Position numbers and translations under genes: made by a program. A stretch of 32,000 nt of DNA, taken from assembly GCF_043950625.1 (NCBI RefSeq), contig NZ_CP171007.1; one strand, given 5' to 3'. This document shows, piece after piece, positions 8,310 to 16,679 of the stretch (positions are counted from its first letter, which is position 1; each line of letters starts with the position of its first letter). The notes under the pieces were generated by a model. The model had not been told where the DNA came from and ran no database searches. It worked only from the letters and a program-made list of their open reading frames with translations. This stretch comes from Alkanindiges sp. WGS2144. GTDB taxonomy: Bacteria > Pseudomonadota > Gammaproteobacteria > Pseudomonadales > Moraxellaceae.

Positions 8310-9125
8310 TTAAAATTTCTCATACGGCAGCAAATAGCGCCATTCACCTATCGCGAGTTTTGCCATGGCCAAACGTCCAATCCGAATACGCTTCATGGCC
8401 AGTACCCTTAAACCTACTCCCTGGCACATGGTTTCAATTTGATTAAGTTGCACGTTTTTTAGGGCAATGCGCAAGTGCTGTTCGCTTTGCCAGCTGACTT
8501 TGGCAGGCGGTAATAACTTGCCCTGAACATAAAAACCCTGATTTAAACGCTGTAAATCTTCTGCCGACAAACTGCCTTTTACCTGAACAATAAATTCCTG
8601 CTCGACCCGGCTGGCATCATCAATGAGTTTACGGGCAATCCGGCGATCCTGCGTATACACCACCAAGCCACTGGCCGCACTTTCCAGCGCTGCGGTGGCG
8701 ATTAATTTTTGAAAATGCGAGCGTAACGGACGAATCGTGGCACGGTCATCCTTGGCACGGGTCTCGACCGTTAATAATTGCAAGGCGTCATGTTTGAATA
8801 AATCTTCCTGCTCCGGCGTGAGTGGCCGTGCATTTTTATTGCGCGCCGATAAACCCTGTGCCAGCAACTCCTGCGTTAAGCCAAAATCATAACCGGCAGG
8901 TTTATTGAGCAAAATAGTCACTGGAAGAATGGGTTTTAAATTGGCAGTTGAAGCAATCACTACCTGCTGATTTTCGATCATATAATTGGACTGCTCAACC
9001 ACCACGCCATCCACACTGACCCAGCCACCAGCAATATAATGCTCGGCATCACGGCGTGAGCAAGCGCGTAACTGGCTAACCACTTTGGCTAGGCGTTGTG
9101 GGTTGGTAACGGTGGTCATGGGCAA
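8310..9125 (-). CDS. S4-domain RsuA/RluF-family pseudouridine-synthase-like protein with a non-canonical catalytic motif
   Basis: 271-aa ORF. S4 block 'RLAKVVSQLRACSRRDAEHYIAGGWVSVDGV', 'ILLNKPAGY', and C-terminal 'GEWRYL' align by eye with E. coli RluF. The position of GRLDxDSxGL reads 'TAALESAASGL'. Confidence 0.7.
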   Translation of the reverse strand: MPMTTVTNPQRLAKVVSQLRACSRRDAEHYIAGGWVSVDGVVVEQSNYMIENQQVVIASTANLKPILPVTILLNKPAGYDFGLTQELLAQGLSARNKNARPLTPEQEDLFKHDALQLLTVETRAKDDRATIRPLRSHFQKLIATAALESAASGLVVYTQDRRIARKLIDDASRVEQEFIVQVKGSLSAEDLQRLNQGFYVQGKLLPPAKVSWQSEQHLRIALKNVQLNQIETMCQGVGLRVLAMKRIRIGRLAMAKLAIGEWRYLLPYEKF

Positions 9126-9891: not shown

Positions 9892-10122
9892 TCAAGGTAG
9901 CGAACCAATTTTGCTCACCCATGCTGGCCGGGCACGATACGCTGACCAGACCGCGTCTCCGCCCAGCAGCATTAACAGCAAGCCCAGCGGGATACGAACC
10001 ATGGCAGGCGTTTGGACAAACCACACCGCAAAAATGCCAGCCCCTAATAAAATCAGGCCGATAACCGCCGTCAATAAGCGAAAAACAGCTTGCTCATGAA
10101 GCGCTGGTTTTTGCCTGGTCAT
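9892..10122 (-). CDS. Small two-helix membrane protein, unknown function
   Basis: 76-aa ORF with two hydrophobic stretches (LLTAVIGLILLGAGIFAVWFV and IPLGLLLMLLGG). It is tightly spaced (42 bp) upstream of rluA on the same strand. Confidence 0.45.
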   Translation of the reverse strand: MTRQKPALHEQAVFRLLTAVIGLILLGAGIFAVWFVQTPAMVRIPLGLLLMLLGGDAVWSAYRARPAWVSKIGSLP

Positions 10123-10385: not shown

Positions 10386-11581
10386 TGTATTAGTTCCGAT
10401 CTGATCGGACAAAGATCTTGAAAAAGAGAAAGTTACCCGTTTAGATAAAGGTGTCGAATCTTAATCAAACAAAGGTAACTTTCTCATGTTGCATACTACC
10501 AATCAAATCATCAAACACAAAGTAGGACTTCTGAACTTGGCAGAAGAACTACAGAATGTTTCTAAAGCCTGTAAAGTGATGGGCGTCTCTCGTGATACCT
10601 TCTACCGCTATCAGGAATCAGTTAAATCAGGCGATGTAGATGCCCTGATCAATAAGTCCCGTCGTGTACCTAACTTAAAAAACCGTGTGGATGAAGCCAC
10701 TGAACAAGCAGTGATTGACTATGCGATTCAATTTCCCGCATATGGACAGCATCGCACCAGCAATGAATTACGTAAGAGAGGTATCTTCGTATCAGGCAGC
10801 GGTGTTCGTTCCATCTGGTTGCGACACAACCTTGAGAACTTTAAAAAGCGACTTAAGGCGTTAGAGGCTAAAGTTACTCGAGACGGTATTGAACTCAATG
10901 ACCATCAGATTGCAGCACTAGAGCGTAAGCATGCAGATGATGTGGCATGCGGTGAGATTGAAACCCATCACCCAGGCTATCTGGGTGCGCAGGACACCTT
11001 TTATGTGGGCAATTTAAAGGGTGTGGGACGCATTTATCAGCAGACCTTTATCGATACTTATAGCAAGGTCGTGCATTGCAAGCTGTATACCACTAAGACA
11101 CCGATCACTGCCGCTGATTTGCTAAATGATCGGGTATTGCCGTTTTACGAATCTCATGATTTGCCAATGCTCAGAATCCTAACTGACCGCGGAACTGAAT
11201 ATTGCGGTAAGGTTGAGCAGCATGATTATGAGTTGTACCTGGCACTTAATGACATTGATCACACCAAAACCAAGGCAGCCTCACCACAGACTAATGGCAT
11301 CTGCGAACGCTTCCATAAAACCATTTTGCAAGAGTTCTACCAGATCACGTTCCGTAAAAAGCTCTACAGTACGCTTGAAACACTACAAAATGATCTGGAC
11401 GAATGGCTCAGGTTTTATAATACTGAGCGAACCCATCAGGGCAAAATGTGCTGTGGGCGTACGCCTATGGAAACATTGCTTGATGGAAAACAGATTTGGG
11501 CTCAAAAAAATCTAGCTCAAATTTAACCTGACACTCATCATCAAAAACGGGTAACTGTTAGATCAGGTTTGAGCTAGTACA
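10386..11581 (+). mobile_element. IS481-family insertion sequence (~1.2 kb), apparently intact
   Basis: Imperfect terminal inverted repeats: TGTATTAGTTCCGATCTGATCGGACA on the left versus the reverse complement of the right end, TGTACTAGCTCAAACCTGATCTAACA (19 of 26 identical by my count). There is a single 346-aa DDE transposase ORF and a flanking 7-bp direct repeat. Confidence 0.85.
10486..11526 (+). CDS. IS481-family DDE transposase
   Basis: 346-aa ORF. N-terminal HTH ('ACKVMGVSRDTFYRYQE') and an rve-type integrase core ('DTFYVG..','LTDRGTEYCG','TNGICERFHKT','YNTERTHQG'). Confidence 0.9.
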   Translation: MLHTTNQIIKHKVGLLNLAEELQNVSKACKVMGVSRDTFYRYQESVKSGDVDALINKSRRVPNLKNRVDEATEQAVIDYAIQFPAYGQHRTSNELRKRGIFVSGSGVRSIWLRHNLENFKKRLKALEAKVTRDGIELNDHQIAALERKHADDVACGEIETHHPGYLGAQDTFYVGNLKGVGRIYQQTFIDTYSKVVHCKLYTTKTPITAADLLNDRVLPFYESHDLPMLRILTDRGTEYCGKVEQHDYELYLALNDIDHTKTKAASPQTNGICERFHKTILQEFYQITFRKKLYSTLETLQNDLDEWLRFYNTERTHQGKMCCGRTPMETLLDGKQIWAQKNLAQI

Positions 11582-11588: not shown

Positions 11589-12650
11589 CCATGTTCCTTT
11601 AAATATTGGATTACATCTTCCTCCTGATTCATGTTTAGATTAAATTTAATCAGCTACGAAAAATAATCTCTTTAATCATCAGCTACGCTAGCTGAAGCTT
11701 TTGGTATTGCATTTACTACTATAACCTCGATATTTTTTAATTGAGTATTTTTTACTAGCCCATTGAAACTCTTCCAACGTTTATCAGTTATTCCTTCATT
11801 GTATAAAACTAGGTATATTCCTTTTTGAGTTTTCTCAGCTTTTTGATAAATAGGAAGTTGTTTTTCATAACCATGTGCTAGCTGATTATTAGAAGTTAAT
11901 TTTATTTCAACAATTACTTTGGCCGATGCTCCTAAGCTAATTTTAAAATCTACAGGCCCTCTACCTGCATCTGCTTCGGGCGACAAGTCCAAGTTATTTG
12001 CATGGCAGTAAGCACAAGCTATACCAAAAAATAATAACTGGGCTGCGGACTCATGTTTTCTTTTATTTTTATCATCATAGAGTAATTTACTTAATCCATT
12101 GTTTTCAATTAAACCTTTAAAATGCATGCAAATTTGTTTTACCACATTATATACATCATCCAATGTAGGATTTTTATTCAGCTTTAATTCTAAAGGTGAT
12201 TCAGCTAGTACATTTTGTGCTGTTCTATACCAAATCACCTCACCAGTTTTATCTTCCTCAAAATTATAAAATTTAGGTTTAGATTTGGAATAAGCCGCCA
12301 AGAGCTCTTGTAGAAAATCAGGAAATTGAGTAAAAATATTTCTGATATGTGTTTTCTTTTCTTGGGTTGTAATTGATCTGAATGCGCCTCCTAATAATTC
12401 ATTAAAAAAATCTCTTAACTCTTTATTATGGCTAGTTATCCAATGTAAATCTGCAAATTCATTTGCTACAGGCAAATCTCTTAAAAACTCTTTAGGTACT
12501 AAAATAACAGGTTCTTCAGTATAAGGGTTTTCAGGTAAATGAACAGGTTTGTAATGTTTAGAGAACCTTAGCTCCTTTAAATCTACCCCCATTTCTTTAG
12601 ATACACGTTGGGTATAACTAATCAATTCATTAGACCTCTTGCGAAAGTCG

Positions 12651-13031
12651 TTATTGCAAGTTCATCCGGTTTACCAGTGCAGCGATTAAGTTAATGCGTA
12701 AACCGAATCTTTTCCGTCGATTTCGATAGCGTTCACTTAGTATTCTAAATCTTTTCAATTGACTGTTAATATGTTCGATTACAACTCGTATTTTTCCAAT
12801 CATTTTATTGTACTTTTTCTCAACATCAAATAAGGGTAAATTCTTCTTTTTCTTTATTGGCATCAATAATTTAAAGCCATCTTGCTCTAACCCATAGTAC
12901 CCTAAATCGGTCATAACATATTCAAAATGTTTGAATTTTTTTACTGTTTTTCTTGCCAATTTAATATCATGCTGACTGCCAGAAGATATATCTACTCCTA
13001 TGATTTGTTTACTCTTCGGATGATAGATCAC
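12651..13031 (-). CDS. IS5-family transposase OrfB (DDE C-terminal part). The frame is open from the A9 tract at 13084-13092.
   Basis: 126-aa track ORF. The same frame read upstream gives NARKKNQSKFYSGKKKKHTLKAQVIYHPK..., the typical 'YSGKKKxHTLK' continuation of IS5-family transposases. It lies in the +1 frame relative to OrfA. Confidence 0.75.
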   Translation of the reverse strand: MIYHPKSKQIIGVDISSGSQHDIKLARKTVKKFKHFEYVMTDLGYYGLEQDGFKLLMPIKKKKNLPLFDVEKKYNKMIGKIRVVIEHINSQLKRFRILSERYRNRRKRFGLRINLIAALVNRMNLQ

Positions 13032-13074
13032 TTGGGCTTTTAGCGTATGTTTCTTCTTTTTACCACTGTAGAAC

Positions 13075-13473
13075 TTACTCTGATTTTTTTTTCGGGCGTT
13101 CTATTGAACATTCTGTAGCATCAATAATGACCCAGTTAAATTGTTCGTTTGCTGTGGTAATGCTTCGTTTTGGCAAGGTAAAACGTCTTGATTTCATTAA
13201 TGCATCTTCAACCTTTTTAATAGTTCGATTCACATTACTTTCAGCGATATGGTAATTTGCAGCCAATTCCAATTGAGTGCTGTAATTCCGTAAGTAATTG
13301 AGTGTTAATAATAATTGATCCTCTATAACTAAAGTATGAGGACGCCCAGATTTCTTTTTAAGTGATTCTGCTTCTTTTAAAACTTCGACCATTTCACTAA
13401 AAACTGGTCGAGGTACACCAACCAAGCGCTTGAATTCAGAATCTGAAAAACGGTTTAATTTCTGATATTTCAT
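13075..13473 (-). CDS. IS5-family transposase OrfA (HTH part)
   Basis: 132-aa ORF ending '...IIDATECSIERPKKKSE*'. The DDE 'D' region ('DATE') sits immediately before an A9 tract. Confidence 0.8.
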   Translation of the reverse strand: MKYQKLNRFSDSEFKRLVGVPRPVFSEMVEVLKEAESLKKKSGRPHTLVIEDQLLLTLNYLRNYSTQLELAANYHIAESNVNRTIKKVEDALMKSRRFTLPKRSITTANEQFNWVIIDATECSIERPKKKSE

Positions 13474-13999
13474 GAAATCTATATTGAGGCAGTTTTTACT
13501 TTCGCAAGAGGTCTATTAATTAAGATATTAGATGTCATATCGCTTATTAAATCAGGACCGACACCCTCCTCAAAAGCCCCAACTAATTCAAATATTGTAG
13601 GATCTTCATTACCAGCTTCTATGATTGCTTTGATATTGGTTAAAATTTGCTGTTTCTTTTTCTCACCAATACCACTTCCTTTAGTACTGTTTGAGGAATA
13701 TCCTATACTAAATCCTTTGATTTCATTTGTTTTAAATTTTTCAACTGCACTTTTCCAAAAGATATCCTTCTTTGATGTTCCTTTAGCTTGCTTTAACAAC
13801 CTAATTATTCCCTCAAAAAAAACTTGGATTTTAGAATAAGAGTTTTTAAATTCTGGAATTTCAGTATTTCTAATTAAACTAGGATCAATAAACAATCTTG
13901 TATCAACACCTAAAATTGGGTCAAATGCTTGTGTAGCTTCGAATTTTACCTTATCAATCTTATATTCATCTGTGAAACTTATAATCATTTCTTGCCCCA

Positions 14000-14031
14000 A
14001 AATAAAAACCCCATCTCACGATAGGGTTTTT
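14000..14031 (-). terminator. Rho-independent terminator of acnD
   Basis: Minus strand AAAAACCCTATC-GTGA-GATGGGGTTTTTATTTT: a GC-containing stem, GTGA tetraloop and U-tract, 21 bp after the acnD stop. Confidence 0.8.
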
Positions 14032-14051
14032 CTCAAGTAAAATCAATAACC

Positions 14052-16679
14052 TTAAGCCGTAGCTTCCACCTCAACATTGCCTTCCAAAAAATCCTTGGCA
14101 AAGCGCTGCAATACGCCACCGGCCTCATAAATCAAGACTTCTTCGCCGGTATCCAGACGTGATGTTACTGGCACCTCAACACTCTCACCATCTTTGCGGT
14201 GAATCACCAGCGTTAAATCAGCACGCGGGGTATGACGGTCGCCTTTGACATCAAAGGTTTCAGTGCCATCAATGTTTAAGGTATTGCGGTCAGTGCCTGC
14301 CTTAAACTCTAGCGGCAATACACCCATACCTACCAGATTGGTGCGGTGAATCCGCTCAAAGCCTTCTGCCACCACCACTTCAACCCCAGCCAGACGCACG
14401 CCTTTGGCTGCCCAGTCACGGCTAGAGCCTTGCCCATAATCCGCACCAGCAATAATAATCAGCGGTTGCTTGCGGTTCATGTAGGTTTCAATGGCCTCCC
14501 ACATGCGGGTTACCTGCCCTTCTGGTTCAATGCGTGCCAGCGAGCCCTGAATCACCTTGCCGCTCTCATCGCGTACCATTTCATTGAGTAGTTTCGGGTT
14601 GGCAAAGGTTGCCCGCTGCGCGGTTAAATGGTCACCACGGTGGGTGGCATAAGAGTTAAAGTCTTCTTCCGGCAAGCCCATTTTGTGCAGGTACTCACCT
14701 GCCGCACTATTGAGCAAAATAGCGTTAGATGGGGACAAGTGGTCAGTGGTAATGTTATCGCCAAACACACCCAGCGGACGCATACCAGTTAAGGTACGCG
14801 GGCTAGCCAGTGCGCCCTCCCAATACGGCGGACGGCGAATATAAGTGGACATTGGCCGCCAGTCGTACAGTGGACTCTCAGCTTCTTCAATCTGGCCTAG
14901 GTCAAACATGGGGATATACACCTGACGGAACTGCTCAGGCTTAACGCTTTTGGCGACCAGTGCATCAATTTCGCTATCCGATGGCCAGATATCTTTCAGG
15001 TAAACCGGATTGCCGTTTTGGTCGTGACCCAGCACATCGCGCTCAATATCAAAGCGAATCGTACCAGCAATCGCATACGCCACCACCAGCGGCGGAGACG
15101 CTAAAAACGCTTGCTTGGCATAGGGATGAATCCGCCCATCAAAGTTACGATTACCGGATAGCACCGCTGTGGCGTACAGGTCGCGGTCAATAATTTCCTG
15201 TTGAATTTGTGGGTCTAATGCACCGGACATACCGTTACAGGTGGTGCAGGCAAACGCCACAATGCCAAAGCCCAGATTTTCCAGCTCACTTAACACACCG
15301 GCTTCTTTTAAGTACAGCTCAGCGGCTTTGGAGCCGGGTGCAAAGGAGCTTTTGACCCATGGTTTACGGGTTAAGCCCAGCGCGTTGGCTTTTTTGGCCA
15401 GTAAGCCTGCTGCCACGGTATTACGCGGGTTAGAGGTATTGGTACAGGAGGTAATCGCAGCAATAATCACTGCACCATCTGGCATGAGCCCTTCAGCTTC
15501 CTGCGCACGGGCAGCTTCCAGATTACCGGCAATGCCTTTGGCAGCTAAATCGCTAGTAGACACCCGCGCATGCGGATTGGATGGCCCGGCAATGTTACGG
15601 GTCACGCTAGATAAATCAAAACGCAGCACACGCGGATACACCGCCGTTTTTAAATCATCTGCCCACAGGCCGGTGGTTTTGGCATAGTTTTCAACCAGTG
15701 CCACTTGTTCATCATCACGACCGGTCAGCTTTAAATAATCTAGTGTTTGCTGGTCAATATAGAACATGGCAGCGGTGGCACCATATTCAGGCGTCATGTT
15801 GGATAGCGTGGCGCGGTCGCCCACGGTCATACTGTCGGCGCCTTCACCAAAGAATTCAATGTAGGCACCCACCACGCGCTCTTTACGCAAAAACTCGGTT
15901 AGAGCCAGCACAATATCCGTGGCAGTAATGCCGGGCTGACGTTGCCCGACCAGCTCCACGCCCACAATATCCGGCAGGCGCATCATGGAGGCACGCCCCA
16001 GCATCACGGTTTCGGCTTCCAGGCCGCCCACGCCCACGGAAATTACGCCCAAAGCATCCACATGCGGGGTATGCGAGTCAGTGCCCACACAGGTATCGGG
16101 AAAGGCAATTCCGTCACGGTTTTGAATCACTGGCGACATTTTTTCCAGATTAATCTGGTGCATGATGCCATTACCAGCAGGAATCACATCCACATTTTTA
16201 AACGCAGTTTTTGTCCATTCAATAAAATGAAAACGGTCTTCGTTACGGCGGTCTTCAATGGCACGGTTTTTGGCAAAGGCATCCGGGTCAAAACCACCGC
16301 ACTCGACGGCTAAGGAATGGTCAACAATCAGCTGGGTAGGTACTACCGGATTGACTTTGGATGGGTCACCGCCCTGCTCGGCAATGGCATCACGCAGGCC
16401 AGCCAAGTCAACCAGTGCGGTCTGGCCTAAAATGTCATGGCACACCACCCGCGCCGGATACCACGGAAAATCCAGATCCTGGCGGCGTTCAATCAGCTGG
16501 GTTAAATAATCGGTTAAATGCTCAGGCTCAGCACGGCGTACCAGTTGCTCGGCCAGCACACGCGAGGTATATGGCAGGGTGTCATAGCTACCGGGCTGGA
16601 TGGCTTCAACTGCTGCACGGGTGTCAAAATAATCAAGGTTGGTGCCGGCTAGGGGTTTACGGTATTGGGTATTCATCAT
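14052..16679 (-). CDS. acnD: Fe/S-dependent 2-methylisocitrate (2-methylcitrate) dehydratase AcnD, aconitase family
   Basis: 875-aa ORF. The N-terminus 'NTQYRKPLAGTNLDYFDTRAAVEAIQPGSYDTLPYTSRVLAEQLVRR' is the form I associate with AcnD rather than AcnA. It has aconitase Cys ligand regions ('ITSCTNTSNP','CTTCNGMSG'). prpF is in the same window. Confidence 0.85.
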   Translation of the reverse strand: MMNTQYRKPLAGTNLDYFDTRAAVEAIQPGSYDTLPYTSRVLAEQLVRRAEPEHLTDYLTQLIERRQDLDFPWYPARVVCHDILGQTALVDLAGLRDAIAEQGGDPSKVNPVVPTQLIVDHSLAVECGGFDPDAFAKNRAIEDRRNEDRFHFIEWTKTAFKNVDVIPAGNGIMHQINLEKMSPVIQNRDGIAFPDTCVGTDSHTPHVDALGVISVGVGGLEAETVMLGRASMMRLPDIVGVELVGQRQPGITATDIVLALTEFLRKERVVGAYIEFFGEGADSMTVGDRATLSNMTPEYGATAAMFYIDQQTLDYLKLTGRDDEQVALVENYAKTTGLWADDLKTAVYPRVLRFDLSSVTRNIAGPSNPHARVSTSDLAAKGIAGNLEAARAQEAEGLMPDGAVIIAAITSCTNTSNPRNTVAAGLLAKKANALGLTRKPWVKSSFAPGSKAAELYLKEAGVLSELENLGFGIVAFACTTCNGMSGALDPQIQQEIIDRDLYATAVLSGNRNFDGRIHPYAKQAFLASPPLVVAYAIAGTIRFDIERDVLGHDQNGNPVYLKDIWPSDSEIDALVAKSVKPEQFRQVYIPMFDLGQIEEAESPLYDWRPMSTYIRRPPYWEGALASPRTLTGMRPLGVFGDNITTDHLSPSNAILLNSAAGEYLHKMGLPEEDFNSYATHRGDHLTAQRATFANPKLLNEMVRDESGKVIQGSLARIEPEGQVTRMWEAIETYMNRKQPLIIIAGADYGQGSSRDWAAKGVRLAGVEVVVAEGFERIHRTNLVGMGVLPLEFKAGTDRNTLNIDGTETFDVKGDRHTPRADLTLVIHRKDGESVEVPVTSRLDTGEEVLIYEAGGVLQRFAKDFLEGNVEVEATA

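Follow-up and report, generated by a model that had tools for sequence, protein, structure and literature searches.

A recently IS-disrupted member of the DUF8370/DUF8371 family in Alkanindiges with a predicted PD-(D/E)xK nuclease module

The window considered here is a stretch of 32,000 nucleotides from the chromosome of Alkanindiges sp. WGS2144 (contig NZ_CP171007.1), and our subject is a minus-strand gene in it that an insertion sequence (IS) has cut in two. Two minus-strand open reading frames (ORFs), 13479..14000 and 11672..12625, lie on either side of an 881-bp element at 12633..13513. The perfect 16-bp inverted repeat GACCTCTTGCGAAAGT bounds this element and has exactly two occurrences in the window, 12633..12648 on the plus strand and 13498..13513 on the minus strand, where chance would give none (0 in 100 shuffles). 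A TA target-site duplication flanks the element, with one copy at 12631..12632 (assigned to no strand) and the other at 13514..13515. The initial annotation of this region had proposed that the two ORFs are halves of one gene which rejoin in frame, and both the split and the rejoining are borne out. Excising 12631..13513 gives a continuous ORF of 477 codons from the ATG at 13988 to the stop at 11672..11674, and the restored junction reads ...AAT ATC TTA ATT AAT AAT GAA TTG ATT..., just as predicted. The start agrees with homologues that begin MIISF. The insertion point is the TA inside codon 159. The 5' part of the gene (13514..13988, minus strand) holds codons 1-158 and the first base of codon 159, which is most of the domain DUF8370; it is recognized by the MIISF start and by a match to the PADLOC profile PDC-M36A. 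The 3' part (11672..12630, minus strand) runs from the rest of codon 159 to the stop and encodes the end of DUF8370, a helical middle and the DUF8371 module, as judged from the excised ORF and from homologues. The disrupted gene has a GC content of 31% against 46% for the window.

The element itself is easy to place. Its ORFs match the transposase domains HTH_Tnp_4 and DDE_Tnp_1, and the transposase is split between two frames, 13075..13473 and 12651..13031, which meet at an A9 run. An IS5-type DDE transposase, terminal inverted repeats and a short target duplication are what one looks for in an ISAba27-like member of the IS5 family, and the element has all of them. On 56 Acinetobacter plasmids there are IS5-family elements with which it is 95-99% identical in DNA over its full length. 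The A. baumannii plasmid copies, at 95% identity, are annotated as the ISAba27 family, and the closest copy, on the A. lwoffii plasmid pALWED3.6, is 9 substitutions apart. From the domains, the repeats and these plasmid copies we annotate it as an ISAba27-like IS5-family element of the IS427-group type (12633..13513, minus strand). Five other copies were inspected; each is 881 bp long with TA on both sides, and all six, counting the window copy, are TA-flanked and sit in an ATAA/TTAT target. The window copy shares its inverted repeats, TA duplication, two-frame transposase and length with the ISAba27-type elements of Acinetobacter plasmids, and differs in being chromosomal and in Alkanindiges, whereas those are plasmid-borne in Acinetobacter.

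One irregularity at the junction deserves comment. The restored protein reads ILINNELI there, one Asn more than all 54 aligned homologues (ILI-xELI). A 4-bp TAAT duplication, with one extra A given to the IS, also preserves the frame and would yield the usual family length. We considered it as an explanation of the extra Asn and reject it because the five other IS copies are all 881 bp with TA on either side. The insertion is recent, since the window copy keeps every residue that is invariant in the family and its IS has moved only those 9 substitutions away from a plasmid copy. The gene in Alkanindiges sp. WGS2144 is a pseudogene, from which no more than a 169-aa N-terminal and a 317-aa C-terminal fragment (aa, amino acids) could be produced. 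NCBI carries the ORF 11672..12625 as a 317-aa hypothetical protein of this strain (100% identity) with no pseudogene label. This 3' ORF has a TTG start just within the gene, by the end of the IS. If it is expressed from the IS, it would amount to the predicted nuclease module minus the N-terminal domain.

The initial annotation called the restored protein an orphan, and this claim does not survive a search. A word-indexed search finds at least 987 homologues, which among the matches listed are 46-82% identical to it and nearly all full length at about 470-490 aa. All 119 full-length or near-full-length matches (~100% coverage) carry PF28123 (DUF8370, N-terminal) together with PF28130 (DUF8371, C-terminal). 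We take this membership from the Pfam annotation of the homologues; the Pfam set scanned here came without the PF28123 and PF28130 models. When a profile was run exhaustively against 1.84 billion cluster representatives, it gave 3,342 clusters at 50% identity with E <= 0.001, and 902 with E <= 1e-30; among the matches listed, nearly all are 460-490 aa long. One genome per species was also scanned, and 146 DUF8370/DUF8371 loci turned up in 185,579 species. They come from Beta-, Gamma- and Epsilonproteobacteria, Firmicutes, Cyanobacteria, Chloroflexi, Bacteroidota, Planctomycetes, Acidobacteria, CPR bacteria and one archaeal metagenome-assembled genome (MAG). A spread that is so sparse and yet so wide indicates horizontal transfer, and 21 plasmids carry the family. 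The 475-aa hypothetical proteins of A. pittii and A. ursingii, which have DUF8370 and DUF8371, are the same as the restored protein in length and domain order and fall in the 46-82% identity range; the window copy differs from them in being split by an IS and in the extra Asn at the junction. We are as good as certain that the restored gene is an IS-disrupted member of the DUF8370/DUF8371 family. It is important to realize that this family is already catalogued, solely as two Pfam DUFs and partly as an unpublished PADLOC candidate, with no function assigned; every member carries the source name 'hypothetical protein'.

The central question is what the C-terminal module does. The initial annotation had read an ordered set of E, D, ExK and QxxxY motifs in it, and this set holds up well: KHESAAQLLFF, GRGPVDFKI, VIVEIKLT and QLPIY are found in the restored protein in that order. 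We place the predicted PD-(D/E)xK core at aa 346-465 (11711..12070, minus strand) on the basis of motif conservation and AlphaFold models. Conservation was counted over 137 divergent representatives that are 29-46% identical to the restored protein. The proposed catalytic residues, chosen from conservation and predicted topology, have minus-strand codons at 12050..12052 for E352 (conserved in 137/137), 11948..11950 for D386 (136/137), 11906..11908 for E400 (136/137), 11900..11902 for K402 (137/137), 11858..11860 for Q416 (136/137) and 11846..11848 for Y420 (137/137). AlphaFold models the whole protein with pLDDT 84.4 and pTM 0.83, and the C-terminal domain alone with pLDDT 90.8 and pTM 0.88. 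The predicted elements of this domain are a helix at 352-369, strands at 374-379, 382-389 and 397-403, a helix at 409-423 and a strand at 428-435, which is an alpha-beta-beta-beta-alpha-beta topology. E352 stands at the start of the first helix, D386 in strand 2, E400-x-K402 in strand 3 and QxxxY in the helix that follows. We believe these positions argue for a predicted canonical PD-(D/E)xK core with a RecB-like fourth motif. The module is very probably a nuclease, and its activity would be that of a Mg2+-dependent DNA nuclease. C367 is the sole cysteine conserved in at least 95% of the 137 representatives, C326 being invariant in closer homologues only, and this excludes a Cas4/AddB-type iron-sulfur (Fe-S) cluster. 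Effector swapping was also considered among the top 150 representatives, and the long variants there are a frameshift chimera (P0122) and a catalytically degenerate form (P0220), a divergent protein that lacks the D and the E; neither is an alternative effector. The sole NCBIfam match is a weak one, to the C-terminal end of EruA, a NACHT antiphage protein (E = 6.6e-4, far below the model cut-off); a literature search for EruA found no paper. The disordered C-terminal tail (11675-11700, aa 469-477) has a conserved motif of its own, ...SAS(K/V)AD, and at least 95% of the 137 representatives keep its A472 and S473.

The N-terminal module is a different matter. Its aa 5-215 match the PADLOC profile PDC-M36A with E = 7.6e-16, over profile positions 8-217 of 457 only. 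DUF8370 is predicted to be mostly helical, and a glycine-rich loop (G104, G106, G108) and several acidic residues in it are invariant; a Foldseek search found no structural relative of it in the Protein Data Bank (PDB) or BFVD. It also occurs by itself. DUF8370-only proteins of about 300-315 aa are found in Acinetobacter and Bacillus and match the same part of the PDC-M36A profile. In A. baumannii and its relatives a protein of about 301 aa is part of a conserved cassette (loci L100-L102, 4660-7175; also L097, 2662-5181) whose other members in A. baumannii are a divergent pair of HTH_3 repressor and Peptidase_M78 (ImmA/IrrE, CapH/CapP-like) genes and an 82-aa ORF. The cassette adjoins a type III restriction-modification system in one strain (L100), and it may be the real PDC-M36-type system. 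On a B. cereus plasmid (L098, 1217-4867) a gene for a 314-aa protein with DUF8370 alone is separated by about 1 kb, which includes a short ORF, from a SIR2 and a TIR gene that adjoin each other; a recombinase gene lies on the side opposite SIR2/TIR. The reverse arrangement exists as well: a Bacillales subfamily of about 370-392 aa (L099, 3341-4519; P0310-P0320) joins DUF8371 to a different, unannotated N-terminus. The two domains are therefore independent modules.

To see what company the gene keeps, we called and clustered the ORFs around 80 species-level loci. The gene is intact in 72 of these, and 2 of the other 8 are only cut by contig ends. No neighbour or partner gene is conserved among the 80. 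The commonest neighbours within 10 kb are a resolvase (11 loci), an integrase (8), a ResIII helicase (6), a type I S subunit (4) and DUF1156 (4); Acinetobacter-specific synteny genes recur as well. Among the genes that directly adjoin the DUF8370/DUF8371 gene are SduA, PtuA, restriction-modification genes of types I and II, bSEFIR and mads genes. Several loci look like islands or defence-rich regions: a Cupriavidus locus has SMODS and DUF6036, a Burkholderia locus a resolvase, HEPN_AbiU2 and a primase-bearing (PriCT_2/Toprim, AlpA) mobile-island-like region, and a Ralstonia locus an integrase, AbiU2 and a resolvase. One further locus combines an integrase and a resolvase with a Gabija-like UvrD/AAA_21 pair, another has an SLFN-type helicase, MazG and PIN, and an Acinetobacter locus has VapBC. 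The GC content of the gene is below that of its flanks in 76 of the 80 loci, by 8.5 points on average.

In the window the neighbours are an aconitase gene and an IS481-family transposase gene. The initial annotation was right that no methyltransferase adjoins the disrupted gene, and the same absence of a fixed partner runs through the 80 loci. The aconitase gene (14052..16679, minus strand) is directly upstream and is shared with all six Acinetobacter orthologues, so it serves as the syntenic anchor. In each of the six Acinetobacter loci the DUF8370/DUF8371 gene is directly downstream of aconitase, as it is in the window; the aconitases are 82-85% identical to that of the window and the DUF8370/DUF8371 proteins 48-81%. 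Three of the six Acinetobacter copies are disrupted, two of them by frameshifts (L027, L065). The third, in A. thermotolerans ANC 7454 (complete genome; L093, 8665-11255), has an independent IS3-family insertion together with a frameshift and a stop, and this IS3-family element has 26-bp perfect inverted repeats at 8883-8908 and 10000-10025. The site is a natural series on cost and turnover, with intact, frameshifted, IS3-disrupted and IS5-disrupted alleles. That the IS inactivated a costly gene is speculation, which takes some weight from the three disrupted copies in six. A neutral alternative is also available: the ATAA/TTAT target occurs 24.4 times per kb in the disrupted gene against 11.5 per kb in the rest of the window, a twofold density.

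The remaining features of the site can be described briefly. A second IS, of the IS481-family type (10431..11556, plus strand), is recognized by HTH_29 and rve domains and by 12-bp perfect terminal repeats. It lies 115 bp downstream of the stop of the disrupted gene, and its transposase of 346 aa is encoded at 10486..11526. In Acinetobacter the position it holds is taken by VapBC and DUF4126 genes. A 63-bp spacer (13989-14051) separates the aconitase stop from the ATG of the disrupted gene. Within it lie a hairpin and then a T-run (AAAAACCCTATCGTGAGATGGGGTTTTTATTTT), the end of which is about 15 nt short of the ATG. We found no good promoter-like site upstream, and Rfam and tRNA scans of the window gave no matches.

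We believe these observations are best explained as follows. The region holds a gene, inactivated not long ago, for a two-module protein of 476/477 aa, with an ISAba27-like element in codon 159. Its C-terminal RecB-like PD-(D/E)xK module would cut DNA in a Mg2+-dependent manner, under the control of DUF8370 as a sensing or regulatory part. The family would move horizontally as a single gene and act as a stand-alone nuclease against phages or other foreign DNA, with a logic like that of Shedu or of a type IV restriction enzyme. The initial annotation had likewise spoken of a horizontally acquired stand-alone nuclease. The low GC in 76 of the 80 loci, the lack of a partner, the frequent islands and defence-rich regions and the PDC-M36A match all suit that description; the want of a significant match to a nuclease fold does not. 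That the module is active as a nuclease, what it cuts, that DUF8370 regulates it and that the protein serves in defence are all things that we infer. Defence comes from the genomic context, and on this point the scales seem to us evenly balanced. For the statement as a whole, which takes in the disrupted family member, the nuclease and its use in defence, we lean slightly towards acceptance. A bolder version would make DUF8370 a new sensor or regulatory fold that controls a RecB-like nuclease within one polypeptide. The family would then be a new anti-phage system of one gene, separate from Shedu and very widely spread among phyla, and DUF8370 would be a portable module elsewhere, alone with CapH/CapP-like regulators in Acinetobacter and beside TIR/SIR2 genes in Bacillus. 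This version we regard as possible and somewhat doubtful.

Several results weigh against the explanation that we prefer, and they should be set out together. A Pfam scan of the restored protein gives no match at E <= 10, and this includes PDDEXK_1, Cas4 and SduA_C. Searches of PDB sequences, with the single sequence and with a profile, give no match either. Foldseek searches of PDB and BFVD with the whole model, and of PDB with the high-confidence C-domain model, have no match at E <= 0.001; the best E values are 0.06-0.1 with TM-scores no higher than 0.35, and the C-domain-only search does no better than the search with the whole model. In favour of a nuclease, the weak top matches do include several restriction-endonuclease-like folds (DdmD, Nt.BspD6I, PspGI, Mus81/ERCC4, EndoMS, PaqCI, Can2/Cdn1 and CdiA-CT). 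The initial annotation had looked to AlphaFold and Foldseek for a decision, and the outcome is divided: the core is confidently predicted, but no fold search reaches significance. It is because no significant fold or profile match to a known nuclease exists that the nuclease call rests on motifs and topology. On the side of defence, PDC-M36 is an unpublished, untested PADLOC candidate and the profile match is restricted to the N-terminal half. Literature searches turned up no paper on DUF8370, DUF8371 or PDC-M36. Many immediate neighbours are housekeeping genes. When PADLOC defence matches are counted per family, genes adjacent to the DUF8370/DUF8371 gene are not clearly above genes 6.5-10 kb away, both sets being positive. 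Finally, none of 50,697 phage records contains a family member; we list this here, yet it neither supports nor refutes defence.

The missing matches invite the objection that the C-terminal module is not an active nuclease at all, and that its motifs are a look-alike on a ligand- or protein-binding alpha/beta domain. Fold and profile searches without a significant nuclease match would be in keeping with this, and some of the weak matches are Rossmann-like or GTPase-like. However, PD-(D/E)xK domains are known to evade automated detection. A look-alike would also have to account for six residues that are each kept in at least 136 of 137 representatives, exactly at the canonical positions of the predicted secondary structure. 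The loss of both D and E in P0220 is what one would look for in catalytic rather than structural residues. We find the look-alike improbable. If the module is a nuclease, it could still serve as an accessory enzyme of DNA repair or recombination with a housekeeping-type role. RecB-like motifs are typical of repair nucleases, and some loci have housekeeping flanks only. This sits poorly with a distribution as patchy as 146 loci in 185,579 species genomes, with low GC in 76 of 80 loci, with repeated decay in Acinetobacter and with the lack of a conserved operon partner, and we consider a repair role highly improbable.

Two rivals remain. One holds that the protein is a modification-dependent (type IV) restriction endonuclease, in which DUF8370 reads a modified base, or DNA that is glucosylated, and cleavage close by is the work of the PD-(D/E)xK module, so that no methyltransferase is needed. 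The solo gene with no conserved methyltransferase or partner, the PD-(D/E)xK motif set and the position often beside restriction-modification genes speak for this. Pfam, PADLOC, NCBIfam and PDB nevertheless reveal no similarity to modified-base readers or type IV enzymes, and the occurrence of DUF8370 without the nuclease fits a more general sensing or regulatory role, so we think a type IV enzyme unlikely. The other holds that the gene is cargo of mobile islands or has a selfish function, as a homing-like or addiction nuclease or a factor for island maintenance or exclusion, which targets the Moraxellaceae site or is retained there. Integrase or resolvase genes lie within 10 kb in up to 19 of the 80 loci, the gene appears as a one-gene insertion between housekeeping genes, and plasmids carry it in 21 cases. 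The same aconitase site is used in Acinetobacter and Alkanindiges, with protein identity of 48-81% against 82-85% for aconitase. Against this, the phage records contain no copy, no repeats or att-like boundaries were identified, most loci are without a recombinase, and a length that stays at 475 aa from phylum to phylum is not typical of homing endonucleases. We judge island cargo to be quite unlikely.

The stakes differ with the scale at which one looks. For the Alkanindiges genome alone they are modest: what it contains is a pseudogene, from a family without assigned function that was catalogued before. Should the family prove to be a defence nuclease, it would add a widespread single-gene system, with thousands of clusters in more than 10 phyla, CPR bacteria and an archaeon included. 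It would also add a sensor domain without a known structural relative, one that turns up again in other candidate systems and would make a clean target for studies of how cells recognize infection.

How the family stands to known systems can now be stated. With PDC-M36 it shares the N-terminal 215 aa, which match PDC-M36A at the E value given above. To go by the pairings in PMC11811056, PDC-M names seem to stand for multi-gene candidates. PDC-M36 would then seem to be a multi-gene candidate, its composition being unpublished, whereas the DUF8370/DUF8371 family has no conserved partner in 80 loci. The RecB, Cas4 and AddB domains (PF12705, PF01930), whose motif architecture the initial annotation had recognized in the module, have the same E...D...ExK...QxxxY order on the predicted alpha-beta-beta-beta-alpha-beta core. 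That recognition stands. Membership of these families by profile does not, for there is no match to the PF12705 or PF01930 models and no four-cysteine Fe-S signature, and no helicase or CRISPR context was seen. With type IV restriction enzymes the gene has in common that no cognate methyltransferase accompanies it. Shedu (SduA) was the other model named at the outset, and here again the design is kept while the homology is not. The restored protein matches neither PF14082 nor the PADLOC Shedu models at E <= 10, its N-terminal domain is unrelated, and a true SduA gene is a mere neighbour of the DUF8370/DUF8371 gene in two loci. The likeness is one of plan: both join a variable N-terminal region to a C-terminal PD-(D/E)xK module (predicted in the case of DUF8371) in one protein of about 400-480 aa, encoded by a lone gene in variable loci.

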